Source: Candidatus Omnitrophota bacterium (GTDB lineage Bacteria; Omnitrophota; Gorgyraeia; Zapsychrales; Zapsychraceae). From it: 64,000 bases of DNA. The stretch lies in the NCBI GenBank assembly GCA_015233115.1, contig JADFYJ010000005.1, positions 22,359 to 86,358 of the forward strand, read 5' to 3'. The notes beneath the pieces are model-generated. The model had not been told where the DNA came from. It searched no databases and worked only from the letters and a program-made list of their open reading frames with translations. How positions within the stretch are numbered: position 1 is the stretch's first letter; each line of letters opens with the position of its first letter. Of the stretch, positions 490 through 59,987 are shown piece after piece. A program made the translations under genes and the position numbers.

Positions 490-789
490 TCAATTAAGAC
501 TGCAAGCATGTACTTCCTGAGAAATTTTATTTCCTAATTCTTCTAATTCAATATCCAAGTCATATGCTGATTGCAGATTCATCCAAAATTGCGGCGATGT
601 TTTAAAATAAATTCCTAAGCGTAAAGCCGTATCCGCTGTGACCCGTCTTTTGCCTAACACAATTTCATTAATCCGCCGCGGAGGAACTTTAATATCCCGG
701 GCTATCCGGTTTTGACTGATACATAATGGCTTTAAAAATTCCTCATTCAGCACTTCACCGGGATGTATAGGGCTTAATTTTTTATTCAT
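490..789 (-). CDS. higA: HigA-family antitoxin (XRE-type HTH)
   Basis: 99-aa ORF. HTH region NRIARDIKVPPRRINEIVLGKRRVTADTALRL is typical of HigA/VapI antidote proteins. Lies immediately downstream of the higB-like gene. Confidence 0.7.
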   Translation of the reverse strand: MNKKLSPIHPGEVLNEEFLKPLCISQNRIARDIKVPPRRINEIVLGKRRVTADTALRLGIYFKTSPQFWMNLQSAYDLDIELEELGNKISQEVHACSLN

Positions 790-810
790 AGGATTATTTC
801 TCCTTTATTC

Positions 811-1092
811 TTAATGATAGTCGACTATTTCGACATCAAACGCGTTATTTTCGCGCCATGTAAAACAAATTCTCCATTGATCATTAATGCGAATACTATG
901 CTGTTCTTTCCTCGCCCCTTTTAATTTTTCAAGCCTATTGCTTGGGGGAGCCGTCAAGTCTCTTAAGTCAATCGCGCTGTCAAGCATCCGGAGCTTCCTC
1001 AAAGCAATCTGCTGGATGCTTCCGGGCAATTGTTTAGAAAAAATTCGATTAAATACTTTTTCTGTTTCTTTGCACCTAAACAATTTGATCAT
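811..1092 (-). CDS. higB: HigB-like toxin (RelE/ParE superfamily plasmid-maintenance killer)
   Basis: 93-aa ORF. Toxin-first order (higB then higA) is typical of HigBA operons. C-terminal motif ...FDVEIVDYH. Confidence 0.65.
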   Translation of the reverse strand: MIKLFRCKETEKVFNRIFSKQLPGSIQQIALRKLRMLDSAIDLRDLTAPPSNRLEKLKGARKEQHSIRINDQWRICFTWRENNAFDVEIVDYH

Positions 1093-1162
1093 AATGAAAG
1101 TATATAACGCGTAACGTTATATGTCAAGATTTCTGCTCCGCCCGATTCAAAAGGCAATAAAG

Positions 1163-3322
1163 TTACTGACCTATCTTAGGGAACCATTTCAACTTATCTG
1201 CCTGCTTACCTAACTCCGTTTTCCCGCACGTCCTGATCAACGCCTTATAAAATTTATCCGCAAGCATAAGGTCGCACCTGGCAAGAAAAAGTCCTCCCTG
1301 GCATAATGCCTTGGCTTTAAGTTCATCGTTGTCCGAAAGAAGCTGGGCGCTTTGCCACATTAAATCCGCCGCCTTATAACGATAGTGAAATCTTTTATCC
1401 GGTGAAGGCAGAGAACTCAACGCACGACTTTCCTCATCACCAGTCCCATAGAAAAAACCGCGATGCGCGAATCTATGTTTTATGGACTCATAATTTGGGA
1501 AGGCTCCCCTATCCACAAAACCATCCGGATCCAACTCTGTTCCCATTAATTCCATTCCATAACGTCGCACTATAATTCCCGCATCATAATATGCTTTGGC
1601 CCGATCTTTTTTCGCTATCCTTTGATTCTGCGCATTCAAAAGTAAAACGTGAAGTTTGCCTAATGTCTCTCTCGGATTAATATTTTCATTCACCTGTTCA
1701 TATTCCGAATCACCTGACTTGTTTTTCTTTTCAATATATCCGCGGTCAATTTTTATTTTTGTTGGCATATATTTTCCGGCAGGCTCTAACTCTCCTTGTC
1801 GCACCAACCGCCTGGCCAAAAGATATTCCAACGCTTCCCGCAAAGTAAGTCCGCCGTCATCAATATTTTCGGCGAACTCGCCTTCATATATTTTTTGTTT
1901 GTTAGCTAACACAGAGTTCCCTTTGTTATTGTTCAAGAAATCCTCAAGCTCCTGAACAGTTAATACTTTTTCTGCCACATAAGCGATATCTTCCCAATAT
2001 TTTCCTTTCAGAAGAAAATCAAAAGCCATGGTGTATTCTTTTCTACTTAATTTTAAAACCGCCATATTTGAATTGAGCTCGCGCCCAATGTCTTCTTGAA
2101 AAAACATGTTTTTATCAGGACTTTTTTCAAATGAAGATATGACTTTCGACAATTTTCCAATAGCCTCGTCAACTTTTTCGTCTCGCAATGACAGTTTAAA
2201 ATCAATAAACCGAGCCAAAGGCGTTGAGAGTTTCGAAGATGTCAACCAGCGCTTTGCCAACGCCCTGTCACCTTTAATATAATATAGCCATGCTACTCGG
2301 TCTGCGTAATCAATCGGATCTGTTTTCTTTAATCCCTCGATCGCGGACAAAAGCCTGCTGAAAAAATCTTTATGCTTTTTATCGTCATTCAATTCCATTT
2401 CTTCCCAATATGGCCGGGAAATGGCCCATCCCAAAAGAATATTCCTCGCTGTTTTATCATTTACAATCGTCGCGATAGTGTTATCCGTTGTCTCAGAAAC
2501 ATTACTGCAAACCCAATTCAATGAATCAATATCCATCTGCTCTAAATAATGTTTAAGACTTGAAACATAATCTTTCTGTTCATACTCAGCCAGCGCTTGC
2601 CAGCCTAAACTTTCCTTCGCAAGACCCAATGAATCTATATAACCATTTTCAGCCATTTTTCTGGTTTGTTCAAAAAATGGAATCGCGCGTTTCTGATCAC
2701 GCAAAGATAAATACGCTTTGCCAATCATAAAGGAAGCCCAGGTGCTCTTATATTTACGTTCAGATTCCGGCAATTTAAATATTTTTGACCATTCGTTGAT
2801 GGACGCAAAAAAATCATTGATGTGATACTTTCCAGCACCAGTTAAATATAATCTAAATTCTTCCGGCACCTTTGACGTCAAAATAATACTTAGTTTATTC
2901 TTTAACAAATTGAGTTTAACCCGCTCGTGACTGCGAAATCTTCCCCCGTACCATAACGAATGGTCTTCTACTAAAAATGTCTGAAGATAGGAATTTATTT
3001 CGTCGCGCGATTTTTGATATGACATAACAGCATCATGGAATTCTTTTTCCGTAATTTGGGAAGCTTTTAAAGATTTTCTCAAATCACCCTCATCAACATC
3101 AGAAACACGTTTAGGCTGTGGGGCTTTTATTTCAAACGGCAGTTTATTTCCGCCTGTTCGTTTTAATTCAAACAAAAAATTCCCTTCAGGAATAGCTAAA
3201 AATTTTTCTTTGGAACTTCGGACAAAATAGGCATCATCATATTCCGGCGCACAGGCCAGCGCCAATGACGCGAATGAAAACAAAAAAACTATTATCAAAA
3301 AATAAAGATTAATTCGTTTCAT
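1163..3322 (-). CDS. Large secreted lipoprotein of unknown function (719 aa from internal Met with lipobox LALAC)
   Basis: Track ORF 1163..3463 has a non-signal N-terminal extension. Internal start MKRINLYFLIIVFLFSFASLALAC (ATG 3320-3322) is preceded by GTGAGG and gives a signal peptide plus lipobox. No recognisable catalytic motif. Confidence 0.5.
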   Translation of the reverse strand: MKRINLYFLIIVFLFSFASLALACAPEYDDAYFVRSSKEKFLAIPEGNFLFELKRTGGNKLPFEIKAPQPKRVSDVDEGDLRKSLKASQITEKEFHDAVMSYQKSRDEINSYLQTFLVEDHSLWYGGRFRSHERVKLNLLKNKLSIILTSKVPEEFRLYLTGAGKYHINDFFASINEWSKIFKLPESERKYKSTWASFMIGKAYLSLRDQKRAIPFFEQTRKMAENGYIDSLGLAKESLGWQALAEYEQKDYVSSLKHYLEQMDIDSLNWVCSNVSETTDNTIATIVNDKTARNILLGWAISRPYWEEMELNDDKKHKDFFSRLLSAIEGLKKTDPIDYADRVAWLYYIKGDRALAKRWLTSSKLSTPLARFIDFKLSLRDEKVDEAIGKLSKVISSFEKSPDKNMFFQEDIGRELNSNMAVLKLSRKEYTMAFDFLLKGKYWEDIAYVAEKVLTVQELEDFLNNNKGNSVLANKQKIYEGEFAENIDDGGLTLREALEYLLARRLVRQGELEPAGKYMPTKIKIDRGYIEKKNKSGDSEYEQVNENINPRETLGKLHVLLLNAQNQRIAKKDRAKAYYDAGIIVRRYGMELMGTELDPDGFVDRGAFPNYESIKHRFAHRGFFYGTGDEESRALSSLPSPDKRFHYRYKAADLMWQSAQLLSDNDELKAKALCQGGLFLARCDLMLADKFYKALIRTCGKTELGKQADKLKWFPKIGQ

Positions 3323-4568
3323 CGACTTTGGCCTCACTTTTCCTAATAAATAAATCTTTATTATCAGACACCCTAAACCATGCAGCCATCTTTTTTTGAG
3401 AAACACGCGGCGGCCGGCCCGTAATCCGCATCCCTTTTCCATCAGGAAGTGTCGAATAATCAAAATCGCCTAAAACATCAAAAACAGGGCTTCCCGTATC
3501 CCAAAAAATTTCAAACGACGCATTATTTGAAAAATTTATTTCCCCATCGTTTACAAGATAAACCTCTGTTATTCCATCGTCCTTGCGAACCAATTCAACA
3601 TCCAGATGACCGGCAGGTATTTCCCGTTTAATGACACGCGTAAATGTTTTCAAATCCCAGTTGAACCGATCTGAAGATAAAGGAAGCCGGAACCAACAAA
3701 CACCGCGGAAATTCTGTGACTTGACAGAATCAAGATATTTTAAAAAACCAATTATTTCTTGAGGGTCAGCAAAAACCATTTTCTTTTTTATTCCCTCAGC
3801 AAAATACTGTACGCCGCCTTCTGCTCTAAGTCCTATAAATTCATCAACTTTGCTGTAAGCAACCTCATAACCATATGTGGGGAGAGAAACATAGAAAGGC
3901 TTATTTAAATTAATCGTGCGGTTAAAATATTCAATGGACTTATCTTTTTGAAAAATATACTGCGACGTGTTTTTATTTTTGGGAAGTTCAAAAGAATGCA
4001 GCTGAAGAACATAGATATCAACCCAATTTAAAAGCGATAAGAAGTCTTTGCTTTCCAGCCAGGTCGGCAAAGCCGTGATTGAAACGGATTTCTCTTTGTA
4101 TGCAGATCGAAAAAGTTTTAGAAATCTTGCAAAATCATTCAATTTTGCCGTAGGACAATCATAATCTAATTCAATACCTGTAATATCAACGCCTGACTGC
4201 TTTGCCTGCTCAATAATGCCGTGGATCCCGTCAACAAGACACCTAACAATTGGCTGCTGATCCTGCACTTTTAAATATCGGGATAAATCCGTCCGCATGC
4301 GAATATCTATGACAGTTTTCTTTTTTGACCTTAAATATTCCCATTTAACAGCTACTTTTGAAAAACTAATATGGCCATTCTCAACCGTTAAATCACCTGC
4401 CAAAACCTTGAACTGAGTGCTTTGACTATTCAACTTCCCGATTGCCGCTTCTATTTCAGACCGCCAGCTCCTTTGCCAGATGTAAACCGAATTTTCATCG
4501 GCTCCTGATAAATTACAAACAGAAAGTACAAAAACAATGGTAAATATAATTTTTAAACCTACTTGCAT
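3309..4568 (-). CDS. DUF3142-like secreted protein (putative TIM-barrel glycoside-hydrolase-like fold)
   Basis: 435-aa ORF. Likely start at MQVGLKIIFTIVFVLSVCNLSGA (ATG 4566-4568), a signal peptide. Family resemblance from memory only. Overlaps upstream SLT gene by 10 nt and downstream lipoprotein gene by 14 nt, so the three look like an operon. Confidence 0.45.
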   Translation of the reverse strand: MQVGLKIIFTIVFVLSVCNLSGADENSVYIWQRSWRSEIEAAIGKLNSQSTQFKVLAGDLTVENGHISFSKVAVKWEYLRSKKKTVIDIRMRTDLSRYLKVQDQQPIVRCLVDGIHGIIEQAKQSGVDITGIELDYDCPTAKLNDFARFLKLFRSAYKEKSVSITALPTWLESKDFLSLLNWVDIYVLQLHSFELPKNKNTSQYIFQKDKSIEYFNRTINLNKPFYVSLPTYGYEVAYSKVDEFIGLRAEGGVQYFAEGIKKKMVFADPQEIIGFLKYLDSVKSQNFRGVCWFRLPLSSDRFNWDLKTFTRVIKREIPAGHLDVELVRKDDGITEVYLVNDGEINFSNNASFEIFWDTGSPVFDVLGDFDYSTLPDGKGMRITGRPPRVSQKKMAAWFRVSDNKDLFIRKSEAKVDETN

Positions 4569-5269
4569 ATAAAAATATGGAGATGATCTTTTGTAATCCA
4601 ATGACCTTTGGTGCATTGAATTTTTGGTTTGATGAACTTTTTGTCTTTGGCTTTCTTATCTGCTTGAGATTTCTTCGCGAATTCAGCTTCATATTCAGAA
4701 ACCCGGGGAACATAGCCTTTTATTTTATTAATAGTATCGGCACTGATATCTTTGGATGGCATCAAAAAATCTTTAACAGCATCCCATCTCGTCGGATCTT
4801 TTCCTGCTTTGGACGCCAACTGTTGTGCTTTGCCAATAGTACCCTGCCCTCCCGTATAAGCGGCAAAATCAAATTTTTCACGTTCGACAGGGTCAATTAT
4901 TGGGTATGTAAATAGTTTGGTACCAAGATTGGTTCTTTTAGAAAACGCGTAGTCAATATCTTTCAAATATCGTGCAGCGGCTATTGAAGAGTAATCAATA
5001 TCAAAACGTTGATCATTATCTTTAGAAACGTATAATCCATAATGTTCCGCCAAGGACTTCTGCAGCTGAAATTCACCCGCAGCGGCCGAAATACCCCGAT
5101 TATTCAACTTAGTTCCAAAACTGCTTTCTTTAGCATAAATTGCCTCAAGTGTATTTACATTCAACACATCTTTATCATCAAAATAAGTTGACGCATTTTC
5201 AAGAGCCTTACGGATATGTCCGTCTTCCTTTACAACCCAGATGTCTACATTAGTCATTTTCTTAGGCAT
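4559..5269 (-). CDS. Lytic transglycosylase, SLT domain, no signal peptide, basic C-terminal tail
   Basis: 236-aa ORF. Catalytic region ...AKESSFGTK...AAGEFQLQ matches the SLT E-S motif and GLMQ-like block. N-terminus MPKKMTNVDIWVVKEDG is not hydrophobic. Confidence 0.6.
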   Translation of the reverse strand: MPKKMTNVDIWVVKEDGHIRKALENASTYFDDKDVLNVNTLEAIYAKESSFGTKLNNRGISAAAGEFQLQKSLAEHYGLYVSKDNDQRFDIDYSSIAAARYLKDIDYAFSKRTNLGTKLFTYPIIDPVEREKFDFAAYTGGQGTIGKAQQLASKAGKDPTRWDAVKDFLMPSKDISADTINKIKGYVPRVSEYEAEFAKKSQADKKAKDKKFIKPKIQCTKGHWITKDHLHIFICK

Positions 5270-5443
5270 AAATTCGTCCTTTCCGTGCAGAGAATATTTG
5301 TTGCGGAAAAATATAAAAGATACGAAGGCCAGATAAAATCATTGCACGATCCTGCACTTGGTGTTGATGCCCGGGAATAAATTAATTATAACAAAGTAAA
5401 ATTTATATTAAAATTATCTATCTTTTTTATAAGTAATAATTTT

Positions 5444-5707
5444 TCATTCATAATGAGTCCACATCCGTACAACTTTAACGACCATCTCTTTCTTATATAT
5501 TTGATAAACTATGCGATGCTGGATGTTAATACGTCGGGAATAAAAACCGGTTAAATCTCCGACTAGTTTTTCATACGAAGGCGGATTTTGAAAAGGATTT
5601 TGTTCTAAGATATTGAGAATCATTAAAGCTTTTGGCTTTAATCCGACGTTGAGAAGCCGTTTTGCGTCAGATTGAGCCTGTTTGGTAAAGATTACTTTCC
5701 AAGCCAT
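5444..5707 (-). CDS. yoeB: YoeB/Txe-family toxin (RelE superfamily mRNA interferase)
   Basis: 87-aa ORF, ...YSRRINIQHRIVYQIYKKEMVVKVVRMWTHYE is a characteristic YoeB C-terminus. Directly downstream of a Phd/YefM antitoxin gene. Confidence 0.7.
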   Translation of the reverse strand: MAWKVIFTKQAQSDAKRLLNVGLKPKALMILNILEQNPFQNPPSYEKLVGDLTGFYSRRINIQHRIVYQIYKKEMVVKVVRMWTHYE

Positions 5708-5711
5708 TTGC

Positions 5712-5969
5712 TTACCATTTGAGATGCGTTGAACAATTCTTTAGTGAAGTTTTGCCGCCAGCTATAATGGATTCCCGCATGCCTGGAATCGATACGAGAT
5801 AGAGAGTTTCCTGTATAGACCGCCAATCATCTTCAGAAATAAGAACAGCATTATTTCTTTTGCCGGTAATCTGAATGGGTTCATGTGATTGGGCGGAGTC
5901 ATCAACCAATTGATAGAGTTTGGCTCTCGCTTTAGTCGCAGTAATAGTTGTCATTTTTGTTTCTCCCAA
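5712..5969 (-). CDS. yefM: Phd/YefM-family antitoxin
   Basis: 85-aa ORF. N-terminal TTITATKARAKLYQLVDDSAQSHEPIQITGKRNNAVLISEDDWRSIQETLYL is the YefM fold signature. 4-nt gap to yoeB. Confidence 0.7.
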   Translation of the reverse strand: MGETKMTTITATKARAKLYQLVDDSAQSHEPIQITGKRNNAVLISEDDWRSIQETLYLVSIPGMRESIIAGGKTSLKNCSTHLKW

Positions 5970-6024
5970 GACTAAGCGTACTATATAGCGTACGCATTGT
6001 CAATGAATAATTTTTTTCTAAAAT

Positions 6025-6798
6025 TTACAAAGATTGTTCTATAAATTCCCTAAACAAAACAACTTTCTTCACTTCACCGGGAGCATAAAGGAACGGCTCT
6101 ACGTCTAAAGCTAATTGTTTAAAATTAAAATTTTTACAATGATCATTCAACTTGGTCTTTAATTGTTGGGCATTCTTTATCCCCAGTTTAGCAGTCAAAT
6201 ACGGATAATTTGGCGTGGTCTTCCCAGACAAATAAACTATGTCGAAAAAATCACGACCCATCGGACGCGGTCGATTTAAAGCGGCAAACAACTTTTGGGA
6301 CAAAAGGATATCAACAGGAACAACATTAATTCTCAAAAAAACATCAAATTTGTTAAGAATAATTTTATCCGATGAATACTTGAATTTCTGCGGCTGGGTA
6401 TCGACTTGGATTAGAATTTTTTCTTCCTTGTGGCCGGTTAATCCCAGATCAAAAAGAACATCAGAAAATCTGATATAAGCTCTGCATACATCTCCGAGAT
6501 TAATACGAACCTGGGTCGTGTACCCTGAAAGTTTTAACCGTTTCATGATTTCCTGTGTCATTTTCTCAAAATCCTTAGGCTTGAGAGAAAGATTGTCAAA
6601 GTCTAAATCTTCAGAAAACCGCGTATTCCCGTGAACAATTTGGATAGCCGTCCCTCCCATAAATGAAAGTCCTGCGCCATATGGAGAATCAAAAATAATT
6701 TCCAGAATTTTGTATTGTAGATACTCTCTAAGAATATTCCGTTTAAACGGCTTCAGGTTTGTTGGATAAAATGATTCAATGTTTTTTAAACTAAGCAT
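6025..6798 (-). CDS. AbiEii/AbiGii-family nucleotidyltransferase toxin (type IV TA / abortive infection)
   Basis: 257-aa ORF. GGTAIQIVHGNTRFSEDLDFDN matches the AbiEii GG[ST]A...R.S.D[IL]D motif. Confidence 0.65.
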   Translation of the reverse strand: MLSLKNIESFYPTNLKPFKRNILREYLQYKILEIIFDSPYGAGLSFMGGTAIQIVHGNTRFSEDLDFDNLSLKPKDFEKMTQEIMKRLKLSGYTTQVRINLGDVCRAYIRFSDVLFDLGLTGHKEEKILIQVDTQPQKFKYSSDKIILNKFDVFLRINVVPVDILLSQKLFAALNRPRPMGRDFFDIVYLSGKTTPNYPYLTAKLGIKNAQQLKTKLNDHCKNFNFKQLALDVEPFLYAPGEVKKVVLFREFIEQSL

Positions 6799-7444
6799 GG
6801 TTCATGACCTCCAAAAGTAATTTTATCCGTTCGGACAAGCCGGGCTGTCCGGAAAGCAACGCATATCTGTGAATAAGCCGCTTGTTAATAATCTTGGAGA
6901 ACAACTCCTTGTTAATTCTCATCCCTTCGAAATCTTCCTCGGCTCGAATAGATGGATTCAAATATAAATGATCGATAAACATTTTTTCCGGTGAAGCCAT
7001 TTTAAAATGCTTTCCACGGTGTTCGATCAGATCATAGCCAAAAAACATGTCCGGCTTGATGGTCCTATAACTAAATTGTGCTAATGGTGTTTGAAACTGG
7101 TAGGTTCTTCGTGTGGCAACTGCGGTAACCTCATAAACGCTTTCAGGGATGAGCCCGTAATAAGCGAAAGCCATTTGTAAAGAAACATATGAAGGCGCAT
7201 AAATCTTATTGGATATTTCAAATAGAACGCCTTCATCTACTTGTAAATCAGAAAAAACGTAATAACCTCGGGTCAATTTCTTAATGTAACCCTTATTTTG
7301 CCATTCAATGAGTCGGGGCCTATAAAAATCTTGTTCAACGCGTCGGATGTCGTTCAGCGAGAAAACCGTAAAATCTTTAAGCAAATTATGAAAATCCAGG
7401 TATCTCATAGCATTTCGTGAAAGTACGTTAAATAGTAACTTCAC
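6791..7444 (-). CDS. AbiEi-like antitoxin/transcriptional regulator, partner of AbiEii
   Basis: 217-aa ORF overlapping AbiEii start by 8 nt, the typical AbiEi-AbiEii arrangement. Assignment is by context and size rather than a clear motif. Confidence 0.45.
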   Translation of the reverse strand: MKLLFNVLSRNAMRYLDFHNLLKDFTVFSLNDIRRVEQDFYRPRLIEWQNKGYIKKLTRGYYVFSDLQVDEGVLFEISNKIYAPSYVSLQMAFAYYGLIPESVYEVTAVATRRTYQFQTPLAQFSYRTIKPDMFFGYDLIEHRGKHFKMASPEKMFIDHLYLNPSIRAEEDFEGMRINKELFSKIINKRLIHRYALLSGQPGLSERIKLLLEVMNHA

Positions 7445-10163: not shown

Positions 10164-10211
10164 AATTATCCCCTATCTTGACTGATTTTTTAAAAAATAA
10201 CATATCGTTTT

Positions 10212-10240
10212 GTAGGGGCGATCTCCTGATCGCCCGCTAC
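10212..10240. repeat. 29-nt GC-rich REP-like palindrome, copy A (GTAGGGGCGATCTCCTGATCGCCCGCTAC)
   Basis: 8-bp stem GGGCGATC/GATCGCCC with a 4-nt loop. An inverted copy lies at 10312-10340 and a third at 38414-38446. Stands out as GC-rich in an AT-rich intergenic region. Confidence 0.7.
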
Positions 10241-10311
10241 AAGATATTCGCTTTTTTATTTTTATATAACAAACGAAAAACACCTGAATATTAAATTTAT
10301 AAATCTTTTAT

Positions 10312-10340
10312 AGTGCGGGCGATCAGGAGATCGCCCCTAC
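10312..10340. repeat. 29-nt GC-rich REP-like palindrome, copy B (inverted relative to copy A, 70 nt away)
   Basis: AGTGCGGGCGATCAGGAGATCGCCCCTAC is the exact reverse complement of copy A. Sits just 3' of the mscS stop, so a terminator role is possible. Confidence 0.7.
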
Positions 10341-10351
10341 AACCGAGTCTT

Positions 10352-11671: not shown

Positions 11672-12694
11672 TTATTTCGTTACCGCTGAAATATGCTGTG
11701 CCATGTCCTTAACACGAACATACCATAGCTTCCCCTTTTTTAGAGCCTTGAGTTCGCCACGGTTTATCAAGTTGCGAAGGTAATCCTGGGAATAATCATA
11801 AAGCTGAGCCAAATCACGCAAAGGAATAACTGCATCCTTGCTTATACTTTTTGTCTTTCCTGTCTTCATGCGCTTGATACTTTCAACCAAACGCCCAAGA
11901 ACAATTTTTTTAAGCTCGGAGAGCGGTTTATCAGTCACAATAGCATCAAGCTGCTCGAGCGACAACTTCTTCCCTTTTTCAATCCTCCGGCTGATCTCCT
12001 CAAAACAATCATCCCCCTGCTCTAAGGCACTGTAATAAAGGTCACGATCCAACTTTGAAAAACCCTTGATCGCAATATTCAGATGCCCGCTACCTATAAG
12101 AATGTAGTTTAGTAAAATACGACCAGCACGGCCATTACTATCTCTGAAAGGATGAATTGTTTCAAACCAGGTATGCGTTAAAGCTGCCACTGTTATAGGC
12201 GAATACTTGGACAGTTTCAAATGCCTATTAGTCCAGCGAACCATCAAGTCTACAGCTTCACGAATATAAAAGTGATCAACAGGCTTAAACTTCGACTGCG
12301 TGACTTCGGCCGTCATCTTGCGAAAATCCCCGATCTCACCTATATAACTCCCGAGCTCCTTTTCATACCGCATGAGGAGCGTATGGATCTGTTTTACGTC
12401 AGCCATCCTCAGGCAAAACTCACCCTCAAGCCACTGATTGTAGGCATATTCGTAGATCGTGCTCGCCGCTTCAAAATATCCCAGAATAGCGGCCGCCTTT
12501 TCCTTATTGGTCCGGCTATTATGTTCCAGAACATCAATCAACTCCTGTCGGTTGGCAAAAACCCCTTCCATAGCGATAGAGTTACGAATTTCCTCCCGGA
12601 ACAGCGAATACCATTCTGCATTCTGGACCGTTACAAGCCGTCCATCGCCGGACCGAAGCGCAGCAATAGCTTTCTTCAGACTCTTTTCATCCAT
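11672..12694 (-). CDS. Fic/Doc-family protein (AMPylator-type) with C-terminal helix-turn-helix
   Basis: Fic motif HPFRDSNGRAGR (HPFx[DE]GNGR core). C-terminal excisionase-like HTH ...DYLRNLINRGELKALKKGKLWYVRVKDM. Start taken at the second in-frame ATG (12692-12694) because AGGAG lies 9 nt upstream. The track start at 12703 has the SD abutting the ATG. Confidence 0.8.
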   Translation of the reverse strand: MDEKSLKKAIAALRSGDGRLVTVQNAEWYSLFREEIRNSIAMEGVFANRQELIDVLEHNSRTNKEKAAAILGYFEAASTIYEYAYNQWLEGEFCLRMADVKQIHTLLMRYEKELGSYIGEIGDFRKMTAEVTQSKFKPVDHFYIREAVDLMVRWTNRHLKLSKYSPITVAALTHTWFETIHPFRDSNGRAGRILLNYILIGSGHLNIAIKGFSKLDRDLYYSALEQGDDCFEEISRRIEKGKKLSLEQLDAIVTDKPLSELKKIVLGRLVESIKRMKTGKTKSISKDAVIPLRDLAQLYDYSQDYLRNLINRGELKALKKGKLWYVRVKDMAQHISAVTK

Positions 12695-12710
12695 AAACAC
12701 CATCTCCTAT

Positions 12711-13048: not shown

Positions 13049-13076
13049 AATAGGGCGCTGTCCCCTATTCTTTTAT
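13049..13076 (+). terminator. Rho-independent terminator for the small plus-strand ORF
   Basis: AATAGGGcgctgtCCCTATT followed by CTTTTAT. Confidence 0.5.
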
Positions 13077-13078
13077 AA

Positions 13079-13116
13079 ATCAATAGTGACAGGCATCGAT
13101 GCCTGTCACTATTGAT
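13079..13116 (-). terminator. Perfect 38-nt palindrome ATCAATAGTGACAGGCATCGATGCCTGTCACTATTGAT, likely terminator of the FadL-like gene (convergent terminator pair)
   Basis: Located 20 nt past the stop of the minus-strand OMP gene. On the minus strand it is followed by TTATAAAAGAATAG (U/A-rich). Confidence 0.5.
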
Positions 13117-13135
13117 TTAACCCTATTGCCTCTGA

Positions 13136-18198: not shown

Positions 18199-18216
18199 AA
18201 GTTTCTCCTGTAAGAG

Positions 18217-18358
18217 TATGTAGTGCGTAGTATGTCGTATGTAGCAAAAACGAAAATAAAAAATAAATTTTTTTCAAAAAACAATCCGTAAATCAACTTT
18301 GTGTTTTTTTCAGCCAATCGCGTTTTTTCACCACATACTACATACCACATACTACATA
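18217..18358. repeat. Heptamer inverted-repeat element (GTATGTA family): arm GTATGTAGTGCGTAGTATGTCGTATGTAGCAAAAACGAA, AT-rich spacer, core CCAATCGCGTTTTTT, arm CACCACATACTACATACCACATACTACATAC
   Basis: Arms are tandem 7-nt units in inverted orientation. Lies between the htpX start and the RNase-J-like stop (the arm overlaps the stop codon). Confidence 0.75.
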
Positions 18359-19765
18359 CTAAAAAATAAATTCTTGTCCCAACTTTGGTATTAATATATT
18401 TGCAAAACCAAATTTTTCTAACGCGGTTTTGAGTGCTTGCTGACGGTCGATTTCACCGTGAACTAAAAAAATGGTTTGAATTTTTTTAATACTTTGGTTA
18501 GAAATGTAAGCCATTATTTCGGTTTGATCCGCGTGCGCGCTGAACGAATCCATGACTTCAATTTTGGCTTTGACTTGTTTCATTTCTCCAAACATCCACA
18601 CTTCTTTCGCCCCATCCCGTAATTCAGCGCCGATCGTTCCTTTAGCACAGTATCCAACAATTAAAATAGTCGTGTTCGCTTCTTCAATGTGATTAGCCAC
18701 GTGATGTTTAATCCGTCCGGCATTGATCATGCCTGACGCGCTTATAATAATAGCCGGCCCTTGAAGGGCGTTTAATGCTTTTGAATCTTCCAAATCGCGG
18801 ATATATTTTAAACCATTAAAACCAAACGGATCCGGGTCTTTTTTTATATATTCAACCATATCTTTATCAAAACATTCCGGGTGATTCCTGAAAATATCCG
18901 TCGCGCTGACTGCCAAAGGGCTGTCCACATAAACAGGAATATTCGGCATTTTACGTTCATTCGCGAATTGATCTAAAAGATAAATAATTTCTTGTGTCCG
19001 TCCGACACTAAAAGCAGGTATCAATAATTTACCCTTATTAACTACGCACGTTTGTTTAATAATTTCTAACAGCCGATCTGCATCTGAATGAATATTCTCA
19101 TGTTCCTGTCCGCCATAGGTGGATTCAGTAATCAAATAATCCAGCTGATCCATACGTACCGGATCTTTTAAAATCGGACGGTTAGGCCTGCCGATATCTC
19201 CGGTAAATCCGAATACTTTTTCCTGGTCAAGTTCAACCTTGACTTTTAAGGTTATACTCGCGCTGCCAATGATATGACCGCTGTCCTTAAACACTGCTGT
19301 CGCATGGTCATTTAATACTACGGCCTGTTCATAATCCACGCTTTCAAACAATTTCATACAGTCTTCTACATCTTTATCAGAATATAACGCTACCGCGGGT
19401 TCAGTCGCGTTCCGGCGGCGGTGATCTTTATTCGCATATTCAGCGTCGCGCATTTGAATCTTGGCACTGTCTAACAACATGAGCGCAGCCAAATCTTTCG
19501 TCGCGGAGGTGCAGATAATCCGCCCGTGAAAGCCGTTTTTGACCAAAAGCGGAATTCTGCCGCAATGATCAATGTGCGCGTGTGTCAGCAATAAGCAATC
19601 AATTTTAGCCGGATCAAACAACCACGAACGATTAAGCTTTTCCGTGTCTTGTTCTGCGCCTTGATGCATACCGGCGTCCACCAAAATGGAATAGCCATTG
19701 TCTAAAACCAGCATATGACAACTGCCCGTGACTTCTTGATCTGCTCCGCAAAATTTTAGTTTCAT
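18359..19765 (-). CDS. MBL-fold beta-CASP ribonuclease (RNA-metabolising metallo-beta-lactamase, RNase J/CPSF73-like)
   Basis: 468-aa ORF with LTHAHIDHCGRIP (HxHxDH) and beta-CASP/RMMBL blocks downstream. Confidence 0.75.
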   Translation of the reverse strand: MKLKFCGADQEVTGSCHMLVLDNGYSILVDAGMHQGAEQDTEKLNRSWLFDPAKIDCLLLTHAHIDHCGRIPLLVKNGFHGRIICTSATKDLAALMLLDSAKIQMRDAEYANKDHRRRNATEPAVALYSDKDVEDCMKLFESVDYEQAVVLNDHATAVFKDSGHIIGSASITLKVKVELDQEKVFGFTGDIGRPNRPILKDPVRMDQLDYLITESTYGGQEHENIHSDADRLLEIIKQTCVVNKGKLLIPAFSVGRTQEIIYLLDQFANERKMPNIPVYVDSPLAVSATDIFRNHPECFDKDMVEYIKKDPDPFGFNGLKYIRDLEDSKALNALQGPAIIISASGMINAGRIKHHVANHIEEANTTILIVGYCAKGTIGAELRDGAKEVWMFGEMKQVKAKIEVMDSFSAHADQTEIMAYISNQSIKKIQTIFLVHGEIDRQQALKTALEKFGFANILIPKLGQEFIF

Positions 19766-21348: not shown

Positions 21349-21474
21349 CAAACCGCGTGCCCAGACACAAGGTTTGCGTTTAAACCGAATCACCGAGCGA
21401 GTTCAGCTCCGCTTCGGAGCTGCTGTTTGAGCGAATGATTTGGTTTAAATGCTAACCGCTCTACCGCGCGCTTT
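21349..21474. repeat. ~126-nt structured repeat element, copy 1 (long imperfect hairpin with conserved internal motifs CCGAGCGAGTT / TTGTTTGAGCGAA and inner stem CAGCTCCG-CTT-CGGAGCTG)
   Basis: About 90% identical to 31585-31713. A diverged third copy at 58357-58430 has compensatory stem changes. Possibly an ncRNA or MITE/REP-like element; strand unknown. Confidence 0.6.
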
Positions 21475-29960: not shown

Positions 29961-29978
29961 TTAAGACTCCAATTTTTT

Positions 29979-30264
29979 TAGTATGTAGTATGTGGTATAT
30001 GGTATGTAGTAAAAACGAATTTGTTTTAATAAAAGCGAAACCAATAAACAATAAAAAACGCTTTAACAACAATCGCTTTTATTTTTCACCAAACCACATA
30101 ACACTTACTACATTTAATTATCAAATAATTTTTTTTAATACACGCTTTTCCAGCAATCGCTTTTCGCTACATGCTACATGCTATACAAATAAATTTTTAA
30201 GCTTTCCCATCAATCGCTTCTCGCTACATACTACATACTACATGCTACATGCCACATGCTATAC
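29979..30264. repeat. Compound heptamer inverted-repeat element (GTATGTA family) with three core copies (30062-30076, 30151-30166, 30201-30216), 5' of proS
   Basis: Left arm TAGTATGTAGTATGTGGTATATGGTATGTAGTAAAAACGAAT. Right arms CTACATGCTACATGCTATAC and CTACATACTACATACTACATGCTACATGCCACATGCTATAC. Confidence 0.75.
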
Positions 30265-31537: not shown

Positions 31538-31790
31538 TAGTAACAAAGTAACCGAGTAACCGAGTAACAAAGTAAAAACTAATCAAACCGCGTGCCCATA
31601 CACAAGGTTTACGTTTAAACTGAATCCCAGAGCGAGTTCAGCTCCGCTTCGGAGCTGCTGTTTGAGCGAAGGATTCGGTTTAAATGCAAACCGCCCAACC
31701 CGCGCGCTTTATATATTCATAGAAATTTTTTAATCATTAAGTAACAGAGTAACCGAGTAACAGGGTAACAGGGTAACAGAGTAACAGAAT
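31538..31790. repeat. 8-nt tandem arrays (GTAACMRR) in direct orientation at 31538-31578 and 31741-31790, flanking structured-element copy 2
   Basis: GTAACAAAGTAACCGAGTAACCGAGTAACAAAGTAAAAAC and GTAACAGAGTAACCGAGTAACAGGGTAACAGGGTAACAGAGTAACAG. Confidence 0.7.
31585..31713. repeat. ~129-nt structured repeat element, copy 2 (same as 21349-21474), bracketed by direct 8-nt GTAACMGR tandem arrays
   Basis: AAACCGCGTGCCCATACACAAGGTTTACGTTTAAACTGAATCCCAGAGCGAGTTCAGCTCCGCTTCGGAGCTGCTGTTTGAGCGAAGGATTCGGTTTAAATGCAAACCGCCCAACCCGCGCGCTTTA. Confidence 0.6.
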
Positions 31791-31799
31791 GATACTAAT

Positions 31800-39842: not shown

Positions 39843-39968
39843 GTATGTAGTATGTCGTATGTGGTATGTGGTTAAAAATATAAGCAAAACAAAAAAAACA
39901 ATAATTTTTATACGCTTTTTTTCATCAATCGCTTTTTGCTACATACCACATACCACATACTACATACC
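39843..39968. repeat. Heptamer inverted-repeat element (GTATGTA family) with core CATCAATCGCTTTTTGC, 5' of purA
   Basis: Arms AGTATGTAGTATGTCGTATGTGGTATGTGG and CTACATACCACATACCACATACTACATACC are reverse complements. Confidence 0.75.
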
Positions 39969-39971
39969 AAA

Positions 39972-41561
39972 TTAGATTTTTAAATATTTCACAAACAGAA
40001 TTTCTTTGGTGTTCTTTAGCTTATAGATGGTTGCGTCGGAAACTTCGCTATCGACATTGACAATACTCATAGCCAAACCACCGCGAGTCTCACGGCCAAA
40101 AGTAATTCCAGCAATGTTCACGCCTTCTTCAGCGAGCACAGTCCCGACTACACCGACCACGCCGGGACGATCATTGTTATTGATCACAATCATATCACCG
40201 TCCGGAACAGCTTCAACATAAACATTGTTCATCTTCACAATACGCGGCTGTTGATTGGCAGACAAAGTCCCGCAGATCGTAAAAGTTTCTTTATCCGTCG
40301 TAATCACCAGACTCATAAAATTAACAAACTCTTCTTCTTTTTTAGATATCACTTCTTTAACATCAATGGCACGTTCTTTGGCCATGTCTAACGCGTTAAC
40401 AAAATTAACCGTATCACCTAAGATCGGCGTTAAAAGACCATTAACTAATGACAAAGTCAAAGGCGCCACCTTATGGTTAGTCATAATCCCATTGTAAGTC
40501 ACTTCAATCCCTTTGATCGCCCCATTGACTAATAGTCCGGCAAATTTTCCCGTGCGGAACGCGAGGTTAATATAAGGATTTAATACTTTTTGACTCTCTG
40601 CGTCAACAGTTGGAAAATTAGCCGCGTTCATGATTCCCCGTCCTAACAACGCGTTCTTCATGGTCTCGGCTATTTCAATCGCTACGTTAATCTGGGCTTC
40701 ATTGGTTGATGCACCCAAATGCGGCGTGGTGATGCAATTATCGAACTTGAATAACGCGGAATTAAAATCCGGCGGTTCCTGATCAAAAACATCGAGAGCA
40801 CATCCCGCGATCCGCTTCTGTTCTAACGCGCGGACTAAAGCCTCTTCATTCACAATCCCGCCACGCGCGCAATTAATAACAAACGCGCTTTTTTTCATCA
40901 GCCCTAATTCCCGGTCGCCGATCAAATCAGTCGTTTCCGGACTTTTGGGAATATGAATCGTCACATAATCAGCCCGTTTCAAAATATCGTCGAGCGTAGC
41001 CCTTTCCAATCCCCGCTGTTCAAAAACTTCCGCGGGTAAAAACGGATCAAATCCAATGACTTGCATGCCAAACGTTTTCGCAAATTTTGCTACCGTTGAA
41101 CCAATGCGGCCCAGCCCAATGATTCCAATGGTCTTGCCGTAAAGTTCAACCCCTTTAAATTTATTTCTTTCCCACTGCAACTTTTTCATAGACGCGCAAG
41201 CTTGAGGGATACTGCGGGAAATCGCCATGATCAAACCCCAGGTCTGCTCTGCTGTCGACGTCGTATTTCCTGCCGGAGTGTTCAATGCCACCACCCCTTT
41301 TTTAGTCGCTGCAGGTAAGTCCACGTTATCGAGCCCAACGCCGGCACGGCCGATGAATTTCAAACGATCCGCTGCCTCAATAATATCCGCCTTAAGCTTG
41401 GTCGCGCTGCGCACAATGATCGCGTCATAATTTTTAATGACCGCCTTCAATTCATCCGGCTTCATCTCATTTTTGACGTCGACATCAAATTCCGGCACAG
41501 CTTTGAGGATCTCGATTCCTTCTTTGGACAGGTTGTCAGTGATTAAAATTTTCTTGTTCAT
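39972..41561 (-). CDS. serA: D-3-phosphoglycerate dehydrogenase (with C-terminal ASB/ACT regulatory domains)
   Basis: 529-aa ORF with NAD site GIIGLGRIGSTVA, catalytic R/H/E blocks and an ACT domain. Confidence 0.9.
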   Translation of the reverse strand: MNKKILITDNLSKEGIEILKAVPEFDVDVKNEMKPDELKAVIKNYDAIIVRSATKLKADIIEAADRLKFIGRAGVGLDNVDLPAATKKGVVALNTPAGNTTSTAEQTWGLIMAISRSIPQACASMKKLQWERNKFKGVELYGKTIGIIGLGRIGSTVAKFAKTFGMQVIGFDPFLPAEVFEQRGLERATLDDILKRADYVTIHIPKSPETTDLIGDRELGLMKKSAFVINCARGGIVNEEALVRALEQKRIAGCALDVFDQEPPDFNSALFKFDNCITTPHLGASTNEAQINVAIEIAETMKNALLGRGIMNAANFPTVDAESQKVLNPYINLAFRTGKFAGLLVNGAIKGIEVTYNGIMTNHKVAPLTLSLVNGLLTPILGDTVNFVNALDMAKERAIDVKEVISKKEEEFVNFMSLVITTDKETFTICGTLSANQQPRIVKMNNVYVEAVPDGDMIVINNNDRPGVVGVVGTVLAEEGVNIAGITFGRETRGGLAMSIVNVDSEVSDATIYKLKNTKEILFVKYLKI

Positions 41562-41656
41562 TACAACACCTTTCTGCTTTCGGTCTGATTCCTGAAAGAA
41601 CCAGTACCAAGACTGATCTCCTGAAAGAGATCATGTCAGTTTGTGACTTGCTTAAA

Positions 41657-41863
41657 AGTATGTGGTACGTAGTATGTCGTATGTAGTAAAAACAATAAAC
41701 GAGCAATAAAAAAATTAACAAAACCGATAAATTAATAAAATGTCATCTTCTCAATTTTACTGGGAAAATTTTAAAATCTAATTATGTTTATAATCTTTGT
41801 TATTTATTTTATTATTCATCAATCGTTTTTCTCTACATACAACATACCACATACTACATACGC
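41657..41863. repeat. Heptamer inverted-repeat element (GTATGTA family) with core CATCAATCGTTTTTC and ~120-nt AT-rich loop, 5' of serA
   Basis: GTATGTGGTACGTAGTATGTCGTATGTAGTAAAAACAAT ... CATCAATCGTTTTTCTCTACATACAACATACCACATACTACATAC. Confidence 0.75.
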
Positions 41864-41877
41864 CTTATGATTAGCAC

Positions 41878-48691: not shown

Positions 48692-49420
48692 TTACGGGAC
48701 GACCTTCAGCACTCTGACCAAATCTTCTCGGGTATCCACCCCGATCGTCTCAATATCCGTCACGACCGTCTTAATTTTGTAGCCAGCCTCTAAAACTCTC
48801 AGCTGTTCCAGTTTTTCCGTCTGCTCAAGATAAGATGACGGCAAACGATTAAAACTTAACAAAAAATCTTTTCGATAAGCGTAAATGCCCAGATGTTTAT
48901 AATTTTTCAATTTATTAAATGGCGCGCCGTCACGGTTAAACGGAATAGTCGCTCTCGAAAAATATAAAGCATAACCCTGATGATCAATCACCACTTTAAC
49001 TACATTAGGATTATTAAATTCCGTCGTATCACTTAGCAACTTGATGGCTGTTGCCATAGGTGTCGCTTTGTCATGCTCCAGCACTTTAACCAGATCATCA
49101 ATCACCTGATGCTGAATTAACGGCTCATCGCCCTGAATATTAATCACAATATCACAAACCACATCTTTAACCGCTTCCGCGATCCGGTCTGTTCCGGACG
49201 CATGGTCTTTAGCCGTCATCACTGCCTTAGCCCCAAACTTTTTCGCCGCTGACATGATGCGTTCATCATCAGTCGCAATCAAAACGTCTGCCAAATATTT
49301 GCTCTGCTTGGTTCTTTCCCAAACATGCTGAATCATAGGCTTGCCCGCGATTTCAGCCAAAACCTTACCTTCAAACCGAGTCGATCCCCAACGAGCAGGA
49401 ATTACGCCAATTGCCGTCAT
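48692..49420 (-). CDS. kdsB: 3-deoxy-manno-octulosonate cytidylyltransferase (CMP-KDO synthetase)
   Basis: 242-aa ORF beginning MTAIGVIPARWGSTRFEGKVL, with IQGDEPL. Confidence 0.85.
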   Translation of the reverse strand: MTAIGVIPARWGSTRFEGKVLAEIAGKPMIQHVWERTKQSKYLADVLIATDDERIMSAAKKFGAKAVMTAKDHASGTDRIAEAVKDVVCDIVINIQGDEPLIQHQVIDDLVKVLEHDKATPMATAIKLLSDTTEFNNPNVVKVVIDHQGYALYFSRATIPFNRDGAPFNKLKNYKHLGIYAYRKDFLLSFNRLPSSYLEQTEKLEQLRVLEAGYKIKTVVTDIETIGVDTREDLVRVLKVVP

Positions 49421-49440
49421 GTCTTATCCTCATATTTAAT

Positions 49441-49780
49441 AGTAACCAAGTAACCGAGTAACCGAGTAACAAAGTAACAGCATAAAAACTATTGGTTTTA
49501 AAAAACACAAAACCAGGAAAAATATATTTTAATAGTAAACATGTAAATAAAGTAACAAAGCAAAAACATAAAAACGCTTGGTTCTAAAGAACATAAAACC
49601 TAAAAAACATATAATAAACATTTATTTTATAAAATTATTCTTTTGAGAAACACAAACAATTTTTATTTTATTCCGGTTATCCAAGCTTTTATGCTTTAAT
49701 TTCTGATTCTTCTTTTATCCATTCGCTTTTGCTCTGTTACTCGGTTACTCGGTTACTTGGTTACTTTTTAATAGCGTCTA
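49441..49780. repeat. 8-nt repeat inverted-repeat element (GTAACCRA family) with core ATTCGCTTTTGCT and ~240-nt AT-rich loop, between the rfaE-like gene and kdsB
   Basis: AGTAACCAAGTAACCGAGTAACCGAGTAACAAAGTAACAG ... GCTCTGTTACTCGGTTACTCGGTTACTTGGTTACTTTTTA (reverse complement). Confidence 0.7.
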
Positions 49781-52980: not shown

Positions 52981-52998
52981 ACGTTTCTTTCCCATCCC

Positions 52999-53034
52999 GC
53001 CTCCGGTAGACAAAAGTCTCCCGGAGGCTTTTAT
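52999..53034 (+). terminator. Rho-independent terminator after FG-GAP paralog 1
   Basis: GCCTCCGGtagacaaaagtctCCCGGAGGC followed by TTTTAT. Confidence 0.65.
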
Positions 53035-53200
53035 AGCCAATTAAAGTAACCGCTTTCGCTAAAACGGTCCTACCCCCTTTTTTTTTATTAAAAGCCATGG
53101 CAAACTTAAAGTATGGAAAGCGTGTCTTATAAAACCAGTATTGTTAAAAAAATACATGAGTTTTATTAATATGAATCAAATACAACACAGGAGAGCAAAT

Positions 53201-55930: not shown

Positions 55931-55945
55931 TAAATTCTTATTAAC

Positions 55946-55982
55946 CCGCCTCTGACGGAAAATATCCGTCGGAGGCTTTTTA
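55946..55982 (+). terminator. Rho-independent terminator after FG-GAP paralog 2 (homologous to the one after paralog 1)
   Basis: CGCCTCTGACGGaaaatatCCGTCGGAGGC followed by TTTTT. The flanking aaagtaaacgctttcc block is also shared with the first intergenic region. Confidence 0.65.
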
Positions 55983-56100
55983 AGATAGTTTAAAGTAAAC
56001 GCTTTCCCCAAAACGCTTTTACACTCTTTTTATTTTTCAAATTACCATATATACTTTAGACATGAATATAAATGTTGGCAAACACCAAAGGAGCTGGAAA

Positions 56101-58303: not shown

Positions 58304-58356
58304 ACGCTTTTTTATTATATTTAGATCATGCCATGACTAAAAAAAGGGCAGTGTTA

Positions 58357-58430
58357 AAATCATGTCCCAGAGCGAGTTTCCTTGGCGCTTCGCCAAGGTT
58401 GTTTGAGCGAAGGACAGGATTTTAATAGTG
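58357..58430. repeat. Diverged third copy of the structured element (core only): CCCAGAGCGAGTT-[CCTTGGCG CTT CGCCAAGG]-TTGTTTGAGCGAAGGA, with a new outer stem AAAATCATGTCC/GGACAGGATTTT, nested in a further 10-bp inverted repeat (58327-58338 / 58432-58443)
   Basis: Flanking motifs are identical to copies 1 and 2. The 8-bp stem is completely replaced yet still pairs, and the CTT loop is retained. Confidence 0.55.
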
Positions 58431-58461
58431 ACCGATCAAGCCGTCATGGCATTCCACCATG

Positions 58462-59821: not shown

Positions 59822-59840
59822 AAGGTCTATTCCTAAAAAA

Positions 59841-59987
59841 GTATGTAGTATGTGGTATGTCGTATGTAGTAAAAGCGAATGATAAAAGTAAAAATGCCAG
59901 TTAATAAAAACTCAAAAAATTATAAAACAAATATATATAACCCATCGCTTCTCAGAAAAAATTTTTACTCCCACCTACTACATACTA
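59841..59987. repeat. Heptamer inverted-repeat element (GTATGTA family) with degenerate core CCCATCGCTTCTC, between two GT9 genes
   Basis: GTATGTAGTATGTGGTATGTCGTATGTAGTAAAAGCGAATG ... CCACCTACTACATACTAAAT. Confidence 0.65.

Follow-up and report, generated by a model that had tools for sequence, protein, structure and literature searches.

Three copies of a hairpin-forming element are localized in gaps between genes of a 64,000-nt stretch of Candidatus Omnitrophota DNA (hereafter the window, i.e., the whole stretch that was analyzed). The question raised by this locus is whether the element is a structured RNA, a site bound by a structure-specific protein or a mobile repeat. The original prediction described three copies of ~130 nt, with ~90% identity between the first two. 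The sequence check finds the three copies where they had been placed (Table 1), and the identity between copies 1 and 2 amounts to 92% across 118 nt. All three are localized, as had been proposed, in short intergenic gaps of minus-strand operons. The flanking pairs are RuvB and DUF2905 for copy 1, RseP (M50) and a T2SSE/CpaF-like ATPase for copy 2, PpnP and an ArfB-like RF-1 domain protein for copy 3. All the flanking genes are on the minus strand and all three copies are on the plus strand, i.e., antisense. An NCBI entry 100% identical to this RuvB assigns the contig to a Candidatus Omnitrophica MAG. The site of copy 1 is 10 nt past the ruvB stop and ~70 nt ahead of the DUF2905 start. Copy 2 is in the 275-nt rseP/T2SSE gap, where AGTAACMG octamer arrays flank it on both sides. 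These direct tandem arrays extend over 31540-31580 and 31741-31792; a third one (49440-49485) is localized just upstream of a CMP-KDO synthetase-like gene (48692-49420).

Table 1. Coordinates of the three copies in the window and of their parts.
Feature	Position	Strand	Basis and remarks
Copy 1, whole unit as common to copy 2; three nested stems	21349..21474	+	sequence, repeat comparison, folding
Copy 1, outer stem, 5' arm (GGTTTGCGTTTAAACCGAATCA)	21371..21392	+	folding; followed by the 2-nt bulge CC, 21393-21394
Copy 1, 5' core GAGCGAGTT	21395..21403	+	pattern, alignment, covariance model
Copy 1, inner hairpin CAGCTCCG-CTT-CGGAGCTG	21404..21422	+	folding
Copy 1, 3' core TGTTTGAGCGAA	21424..21435	+	pattern, alignment
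Copy 1, outer stem, 3' arm (TGATTTGGTTTAAATGCTAACC)	21436..21457	+	folding
Copy 2, whole unit	31585..31713	+	repeat comparison, folding, covariance model
Copy 2, outer arms	31606-31627 and 31671-31692	+	
Copy 2, 5' core	31630-31638	+	
Copy 2, inner hairpin	31639-31657	+	
Copy 2, 3' core	31659-31670	+	
Copy 3, second subfamily, ppnP/arfB gap	58346..58433	+	folding, covariance model
Copy 3, extended outer arms	58346-58367 and 58412-58433	+	
Copy 3, 12-bp stem of the original prediction	58356-58367 with 58412-58423	+	
Copy 3, bulge CA	58368-58369	+	
Copy 3, 5' core	58370-58378	+	
Copy 3, inner hairpin	58380-58398	+	
Copy 3, 3' core	58400-58411	+	

The blocks common to copy 3 and to copies 1 and 2 are only GAGCGAGTT, TGTTTGAGCGAA and the CTT loop. 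The motifs had been said to be kept exactly in copy 3; this is correct for these two cores and the loop. On the contrary, the longer 5' motif (CACCGAGCGAGTT in copy 1, CCCAGAGCGAGTT in copies 2 and 3) differs at two positions, and the 3' motif starts with CTG in copies 1 and 2 and with TTG in copy 3. The stems of copy 3 are unrelated in sequence to those of copies 1 and 2. The compensated stem swap proposed for this copy is confirmed in the case of the inner stem (CCTTGGCG/CGCCAAGG), which is complementary, and in that of the outer stem (AAAATCATGTCC/GGACAGGATTTT) with the exception of one A.G mismatch. The CTT loop, supposed to be fixed, is so within the window genome; elsewhere, the loop is GAAG, GAU, ACCA, AAA, UCUU and others.

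The pattern GAGCGAG-N15-40-TGAGCGAA has 3 matches in the window vs. 0.00 expected. The fold of the plus strand gives z values of −5.4, −6.9 and −5.8 against shuffles for copies 1, 2 and 3, respectively, and this strand folds better than the minus strand in each of them (plus/minus: −56/−48, −53.5/−49.6 and −40/−30.6 kcal/mol). A covariance-model search, which had been suggested as a check, was run with filters off over the 64-kb window. Exactly the three known copies were recovered (E values of 3e-22, 2e-21 and 1e-19), with nothing above simple hairpins in the rest of the window. Solo half-sites in the window are not above chance.

The family was then defined by exact match to GAGCGAGTT-N14-30-TGTTTGAGCGAA. 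This pattern retrieves 19 loci in a species-representative genome collection, where the chance expectation (own arithmetic) is ~5 matches in 596 Gb, and 19 more in a metagenome collection. The scan of a viral contig collection gave 0 matches and the plasmid BLAST only a 19-nt chance match. About two thirds of the pattern matches are found in long hairpins, i.e., ~26 distinct hairpin-embedded instances. The matches without hairpin (L002, L004, L005, L009/L015, L011/L020, L017, L021, L027, L034, L036 and L038) were taken as chance or unrelated. The named carriers belong to Acidimicrobiia, Lachnospiraceae (3 copies), Adlercreutzia, Phycisphaeraceae and Clostridiales, to which a gammaproteobacterium and three other Omnitrophota are added; contigs from gut, termite gut and sediment supply additional instances. 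The GC content of the hosts spans from 35 to 72%.

Since the core is held constant by an exact-match pattern, the size of the family and its true variability are underestimated. Core variability is seen in three diverged copies found by the covariance model, which reduce the hardest core to GCGAGUU / UGUYYGAGC; examples are AAU-GCGAGUU...UGUYYGAGC-AGG in UBA2337 and GCGGAGUUCCGCAGC...GAGGACUGUCUGAGC in Adlercreutzia. Many members have an extra module outside the search pattern, i.e., ACC-GAGCGAGTT-CCGCA-(stem-loop)-GAGGAC-TGTTTGAGCGAA-TGG. Phycisphaeraceae, Clostridiales, Omnitrophota and a 43%-GC contig have it in identical form, and one locus (L037) covaries inside it (GCGCA/GAGCGC). In three low-GC metagenome contigs (L022:40-140, L032:780-890 and L033:380-480), a further conserved layer, (C)CGRUGAGGA ... 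UCCGARYGAA, surrounds the element. L022 and L032 hence have two GAGCGAA-like motifs on the 3' side, possibly as a result of nested elements, and L033 has GAAUGAA.

A structural alignment (A3) of 26 distinct instances was analyzed with RNAalifold, which draws an outer stem of 14 bp and, in addition, pairs the central G-C and C-G of the facing GAGCGA hexamers (26/26). Each of the 14 outer-stem pairs has changes on both sides. The proportion of paired cells in the outer stem is 80.8%, vs. 51% in shuffles (0/500 reach the observed value) and 31-45% with the partner slid. An inner hairpin, if only a short one, forms in 24 of the 26 instances with unrelated sequences and loops; its mean z is −2.4, and 15 of the 26 singly beat 95% of shuffles. 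The length of the stem from the core to the end of the repeat ranges from 5 to 42 bp across the family. The GC content of the stems tracks that of the host (Spearman 0.78, p 2e-6) and the core stays constant. The proposal that paired regions vary while motifs stay is thus extended beyond the window: the same core is found in unrelated stems, in ~26 instances from several phyla, and the covariation of the outer stem beats all controls. Because the stems are replaced and tuned to host GC around at least 21 identical nt (~39 in many members), the core is under strong selection.

The two motifs had also been described as single-stranded. Their conservation is confirmed; as to their state, they probably pair non-canonically with each other, judging from the central GC/CG paired by RNAalifold. 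The antiparallel reading of GAGCGA vs. GAGCGA gives G.A, A.G, G-C, C-G, G.A and A.G. This putative pseudo-symmetric purine platform comes with a nearly constant 2-nt bulge on the 5' side and one A on the 3' side. An alternative register, GAGCGAG with UUUGAGC, is drawn by RNAfold.

Which strand folds was examined by counting wobbles. The count in the minimum-energy folds (44 vs. 33) is indecisive. An ungapped census of the stems by the core, read on the GAGCGA strand, contains 401 Watson-Crick pairs, 22 G.U, 7 A.C and 24 other mismatches; after removal of near-duplicates, G.U vs. A.C is about 18 to 5 (p about 0.01). The excess of G.U over A.C thus speaks for selection on the fold of the GAGCGA strand. 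This strand is the C-rich one in the window, with a GC skew of −0.17 for the whole and −0.15 for intergenic sequence. It is therefore antisense to the genes and the leading-strand template. In the family, the orientation relative to flanking genes is mixed, ~14 antisense and 6 sense (assigned by ORF and GC3 heuristics, approximate in high-GC loci), i.e., it is a bias and not a rule. Sense copies are mostly localized just past a gene stop (L016, L019, L026 and L037). Between co-directional genes, 10 copies are antisense vs. 3 sense. Two Omnitrophota copies follow tRNA genes at a distance of 10-28 nt and are on the strand opposite to them.

The junctions occupied in the window were compared to those of relatives. 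In the closest one (L039, RuvB 85% identical), the distance from ruvB to the next gene is 20 nt. In a 78% relative (L040-L043), the gaps are 26 nt (ruvB-DUF2905) and 17-44 nt (rseP-T2SSE). The same junctions are 206 nt and 275 nt long, respectively, in the window, and the covariance model finds no element over the loci of those relatives (100 kb). Since syntenic gaps of 17-44 nt in the relatives are free of the element, the window copies are insertions relative to related genomes. These empty sites, together with the presence of one subfamily at unrelated loci, agree with the mobile-element half of the original prediction.

Recent multiplication is visible within genomes, including that of the window, where copies 1 and 2 are 92% identical. 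In Lachnospiraceae, three copies are localized by plsY, der and prs; one compensated change (from C-G to A-T) is seen among them. L006 and L028 are one subfamily at unrelated loci, with a compensated T-A to C-G change and a retained G.U. A tandem pair is found in L013 (copies 99% identical). In Phycisphaeraceae, a repeat of at least 165 nt is found at the start of two contigs, which suggests assembly breakage. Inverted pairs of elements 45-100 nt apart exist, as do tandem pairs. A 72%-GC contig (L031:5190-5585) has a 400-nt nest of inverted repeats with arms of 28-50 nt, some of which pair in mutually exclusive ways; the nest holds two elements in opposite orientation. Concerning the boundaries, the termini of copies 1 and 2 form an imperfect AAA(C/G)CGCG inverted repeat. 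No target-site duplication was found at copies 1 and 2 nor at the Lachnospiraceae copies. Termini vary among genomes, and no conserved terminal sequence or flank was found.

The comparison with Rfam, also suggested in the original prediction, was carried out on the window and 18 loci and matched the element to no family. At gathering scores, Rfam 15 gave 0 matches in the window, and 12 element loci gave only two tRNA genes. Nothing relevant appeared with E values up to 10 around copies 1 and 3, nor up to 1 in six further loci. A literature search for the core sequences gave only primer coincidences, and no matching description was found in the searchable literature. As to partner genes, a Y1 transposase or RAYT gene had been thought worth looking for as a possible agent of mobilization. 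None was found: transposase, RAYT and reverse transcriptase are absent from the ~50 window ORFs scanned with Pfam and from the genes annotated by synteny with relatives, as well as from 10 neighbor ORFs of other loci (Pfam), which encode ordinary enzymes. All-against-all BLASTP of the neighbors revealed no recurring protein family near the elements, and no parent IS was found near the loci. The neighbors are ordinary housekeeping or metabolic genes. The lack of a recurrent neighbor family and the ordinary nature of the neighbors are consistent with an action in trans.

Other features of the window are reported here for their own sake. Arrays of the octamer GTATGTRG are found at 18215-18360, 29970-30257, 39843-39972, 41647-41866 and 59840-59986. 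Each one pairs with an inverted CYACATAC array 55-115 nt off, with arms up to 36 nt and 81-94% complementary. These pairs are localized just upstream of minus-strand gene starts and would form a long 5'-leader hairpin. The segment 11672-13135 contains a Fic/DOC + HTH gene (11672-12703) and then a 432-nt gap with a perfect 44-bp palindrome (13076-13119) and other inverted repeats; it looks inserted, since the gene is missing from the otherwise syntenic closest relative. A toxin-antitoxin cluster (490-7444) includes a HigB-like toxin with its HTH partner, a YoeB/ParE-like toxin with Phd/YefM, and AbiEii; a 217-aa ORF upstream of AbiEii has no Pfam match. Greedy selection placed no ORF of at least 70 aa in the 1.1 kb of 3464-4558. 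This sequence is not intergenic-looking and may be a frameshifted or interrupted gene. The sole plus-strand block is 50929-57876. FG-GAP repeats and a weak match to CARDB are found in its first ORF (50929-52980), and the next two large ORFs have repeat families in common with it (60-84% identity).

Taken together, we tentatively favor, while granting that it may well be wrong, the reading that the copies belong to a non-autonomous, dispersed family of REP/MITE-like mobile hairpins of ~70-130 nt, whose core docks a putative trans-acting, dimeric and structure-specific protein. The distribution of the family is sporadic, multi-phylum, multi-copy and polymorphic. Such a pattern is that of a selfish element that moves horizontally and not that of a regulatory RNA inherited vertically. 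The element would insert into intergenic gaps of housekeeping operons and spread between bacterial phyla. Its GAGCGA strand, as single-stranded DNA or RNA, would form an outer stem and an inner hairpin separated by an internal loop, in which the two antiparallel GAGCGA hexamers would make the contacts G.A/A.G, G-C/C-G and G.A/A.G, then G.U and U.U, and would thus yield a two-fold pseudo-symmetric purine platform. A trans-acting, probably dimeric protein would dock on this platform and copy or move the element, perhaps as a single strand; the helices would need only to pair. Several points are at variance with this reading: (i) a distance from core to end that varies over 5-42 bp would fit poorly with an enzyme binding the core and cutting at the ends; (ii) a ~39-nt cross-phylum core flanked by covarying helices is typically seen in ribozymes and protein-binding RNAs as well; (iii) the GAGCGA strand in the window is not the lagging-strand template used by IS200/IS605-type single-strand transposition; (iv) the annotated window genes and the 10 neighbor ORFs of other loci include no transposase, RAYT or reverse transcriptase as partner; (v) neither a target-site duplication nor a conserved terminal sequence was found; (vi) the core was set by the search pattern, and its variability is known only from the three diverged copies.

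A close rival, which we consider a real possibility, is that the dispersed repeat carries a functional structured RNA, i.e., either a protein-binding motif for the processing or stability of the neighbor transcript, or a self-cleaving ribozyme. The helices P1 (outer stem), P2 and P3 (inner hairpin) would then be scaffolds and the conserved internal loops the active part. Invariant joining regions, covarying helices of free length and a sporadic multi-phylum spread are indeed typical of small ribozymes and protein-binding RNAs. The preference for G.U over A.C (22 to 7) is on one strand, and a stable RNA motif well known from work on the r(GGCGAGCC) duplex is the tandem G.A with G-C on either side. 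The placement of sense copies mostly past stops and of antisense copies in operons would fit an orientation-dependent effect selected against inside operons, and the inner hairpin of copy 3 followed by UUGUUUGAGC is weakly terminator-like. On the contrary, the window copies are all antisense to their operons, and copies 1 and 2 are without convincing promoter. Perfect stems of 20-28 bp and arms of up to 50 nt (L031) are unusual for RNAs and typical of DNA repeats. The empty orthologous sites in relatives mean that there is no conserved gene association, and the permissive Rfam searches described above retrieved no family.

Several known motifs were compared with the element and rejected: (i) a standard k-turn has the wrong bulge geometry; (ii) likeness to the PyrR binding loop, UCCAGAGAGG, is limited to copies 2 and 3, most members having ACCGAGCGAG; (iii) boxA/nut on the minus strand is without CUUU; (iv) for the hammerhead (CUGANGA...GAAA), CUGUUUGAGCGAA lacks A6, G8 and A9, there is no stem II between the boxes, and neither the hammerhead nor the other small self-cleaving ribozymes modeled in Rfam give a match; (v) the GGA site of CsrA is absent from the window copies; (vi) a short ORF is interrupted by a stop codon inside copy 1; (vii) in the case of an intrinsic terminator, no site is called at copy 1 and no T run follows the outer stems. 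The core may form G.A/A.G steps closed by G-C near an asymmetric 2x1 bulge, and in this modeled form it is similar to tandem G.A motifs (k-turn, CGAG/GAGC duplex). It differs from the k-turn, which has a 3-nt bulge on one strand only, by its two symmetric tandem G.A steps.

We regard a further proposal as rather unlikely. The ~39-nt core (ACC-GAGCGAGUU-CCGCA ... GAGGAC-UGUUUGAGCGAA-UGG) and its helices would be a new active nucleic-acid module, either a small self-cleaving ribozyme or the recognition module of a novel hairpin-specific mobilization or processing enzyme, riding a selfish hairpin repeat across phyla.

It appears improbable that the element is a REPIN/REP moved by a RAYT, i.e., a domesticated IS200/IS605-type Y1 transposase, or a PATE-type IS200/IS605 derivative. 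The likeness to REP, REPIN and BIME is manifold: short extragenic multi-copy palindromes between genes and at gene 3' ends, inverted or tandem clusters, long single-strand hairpins, compensated stem changes within a genome and absence of genes. Moreover, a separate doublet at 10210-10342 of the window has a REPIN-like layout (GTAG head + palindrome): two 33-nt hairpins, TTGTAG-GGGCGATC-TCCT-GATCGCCC-G-CTACAA, are inverted around a 77-nt AT-rich spacer, with 28-nt arms 100% complementary. This doublet fits the REP definition and the genome may thus hold a RAYT. REPs are defined by a conserved 5'-terminal tetranucleotide GT(A/G)G directly before the palindrome (PMC3686654). This head is missing from the element, in which the bases before core or stems are CACC, CCCA and others. 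Its conserved halves, GAGCGAG and GAGCGAA, are direct repeats and only the variable arms are inverted. Its core is identical over several phyla, unlike REP sequences, which are species- or clade-specific; a preprint describes REPIN-RAYT systems as lineage-specific, with mostly vertical inheritance (bioRxiv 10.1101/2022.05.22.493013). REPs go with a cognate RAYT gene that the same repeats flank; none is linked to the element in these 64 kb, where the annotated or scanned ORFs include no Y1 gene. IS200/IS605 and PATE elements resemble the element by their imperfect ssDNA hairpins, read by a dimeric HUH enzyme, and by their horizontal cross-phylum spread. Their ends are marked by two separate subterminal hairpins, with a fixed target tetra- or pentanucleotide at the left end, vs. 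one composite hairpin and no conserved flank here. Their active strand is on the lagging-strand template, whereas the favored folding strand of the element is the leading-strand template in the window.

Ordinary hairpins (terminators or neutral palindromic junk, functionless, with the motif by chance or recent common descent) are very hard to believe in: the intergenic positions, often at gene 3' ends, and the single terminator-like call at copy 3 would suit them, but stems fully diverged and GC-tracking over 35-72% around an identical core of at least 21 nt cannot be produced by neutral descent, the outer stems are without U-tract, and the pattern counts and model E-values are far from chance.

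The mobile hairpin family favored here was also compared with MITEs and attC sites. The similarity to MITEs (Correia/NEMIS, ERIC, RUP, bcr1) concerns the size of 70-150 nt, the long inverted arms, the intergenic position within operons and the presence/absence among relatives. MITEs keep their terminal inverted repeats and usually have a target-site duplication; on the contrary, the element keeps its center, its arms vary and no duplication is seen. To our knowledge, no described MITE family extends beyond a single genus or species. As in attC sites, a folded single strand would be recognized, with free paired sequence, specific short boxes or unpaired bases and a variable terminal hairpin. 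The R''/R' boxes (RYYYAAC/GTTRRRY) at the base of the attC hairpin are absent from both strands of the element. The attC sites are without long variable outer stem, and the neighbors of the element are housekeeping genes, not cassettes. Small dispersed palindromic repeats are known in kind, but a cross-phylum conserved internal loop is absent from the described REP, MITE and attC families.

As a rule, REPs, MITEs and other small palindromic repeats do not extend beyond one species or genus. An internal loop of ~21-39 nt identical from Omnitrophota to Actinobacteria and Firmicutes points to an undescribed conserved, horizontally travelling machinery or to an intrinsic catalytic or binding activity. 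The repeat also matters for the assembly and annotation of uncultured lineages, as illustrated by the Phycisphaeraceae contig starts. The hairpin of 70-90 nt and its covariance model are a concrete testable object, and the model is usable for genome profiling and for the discovery of partner genes.
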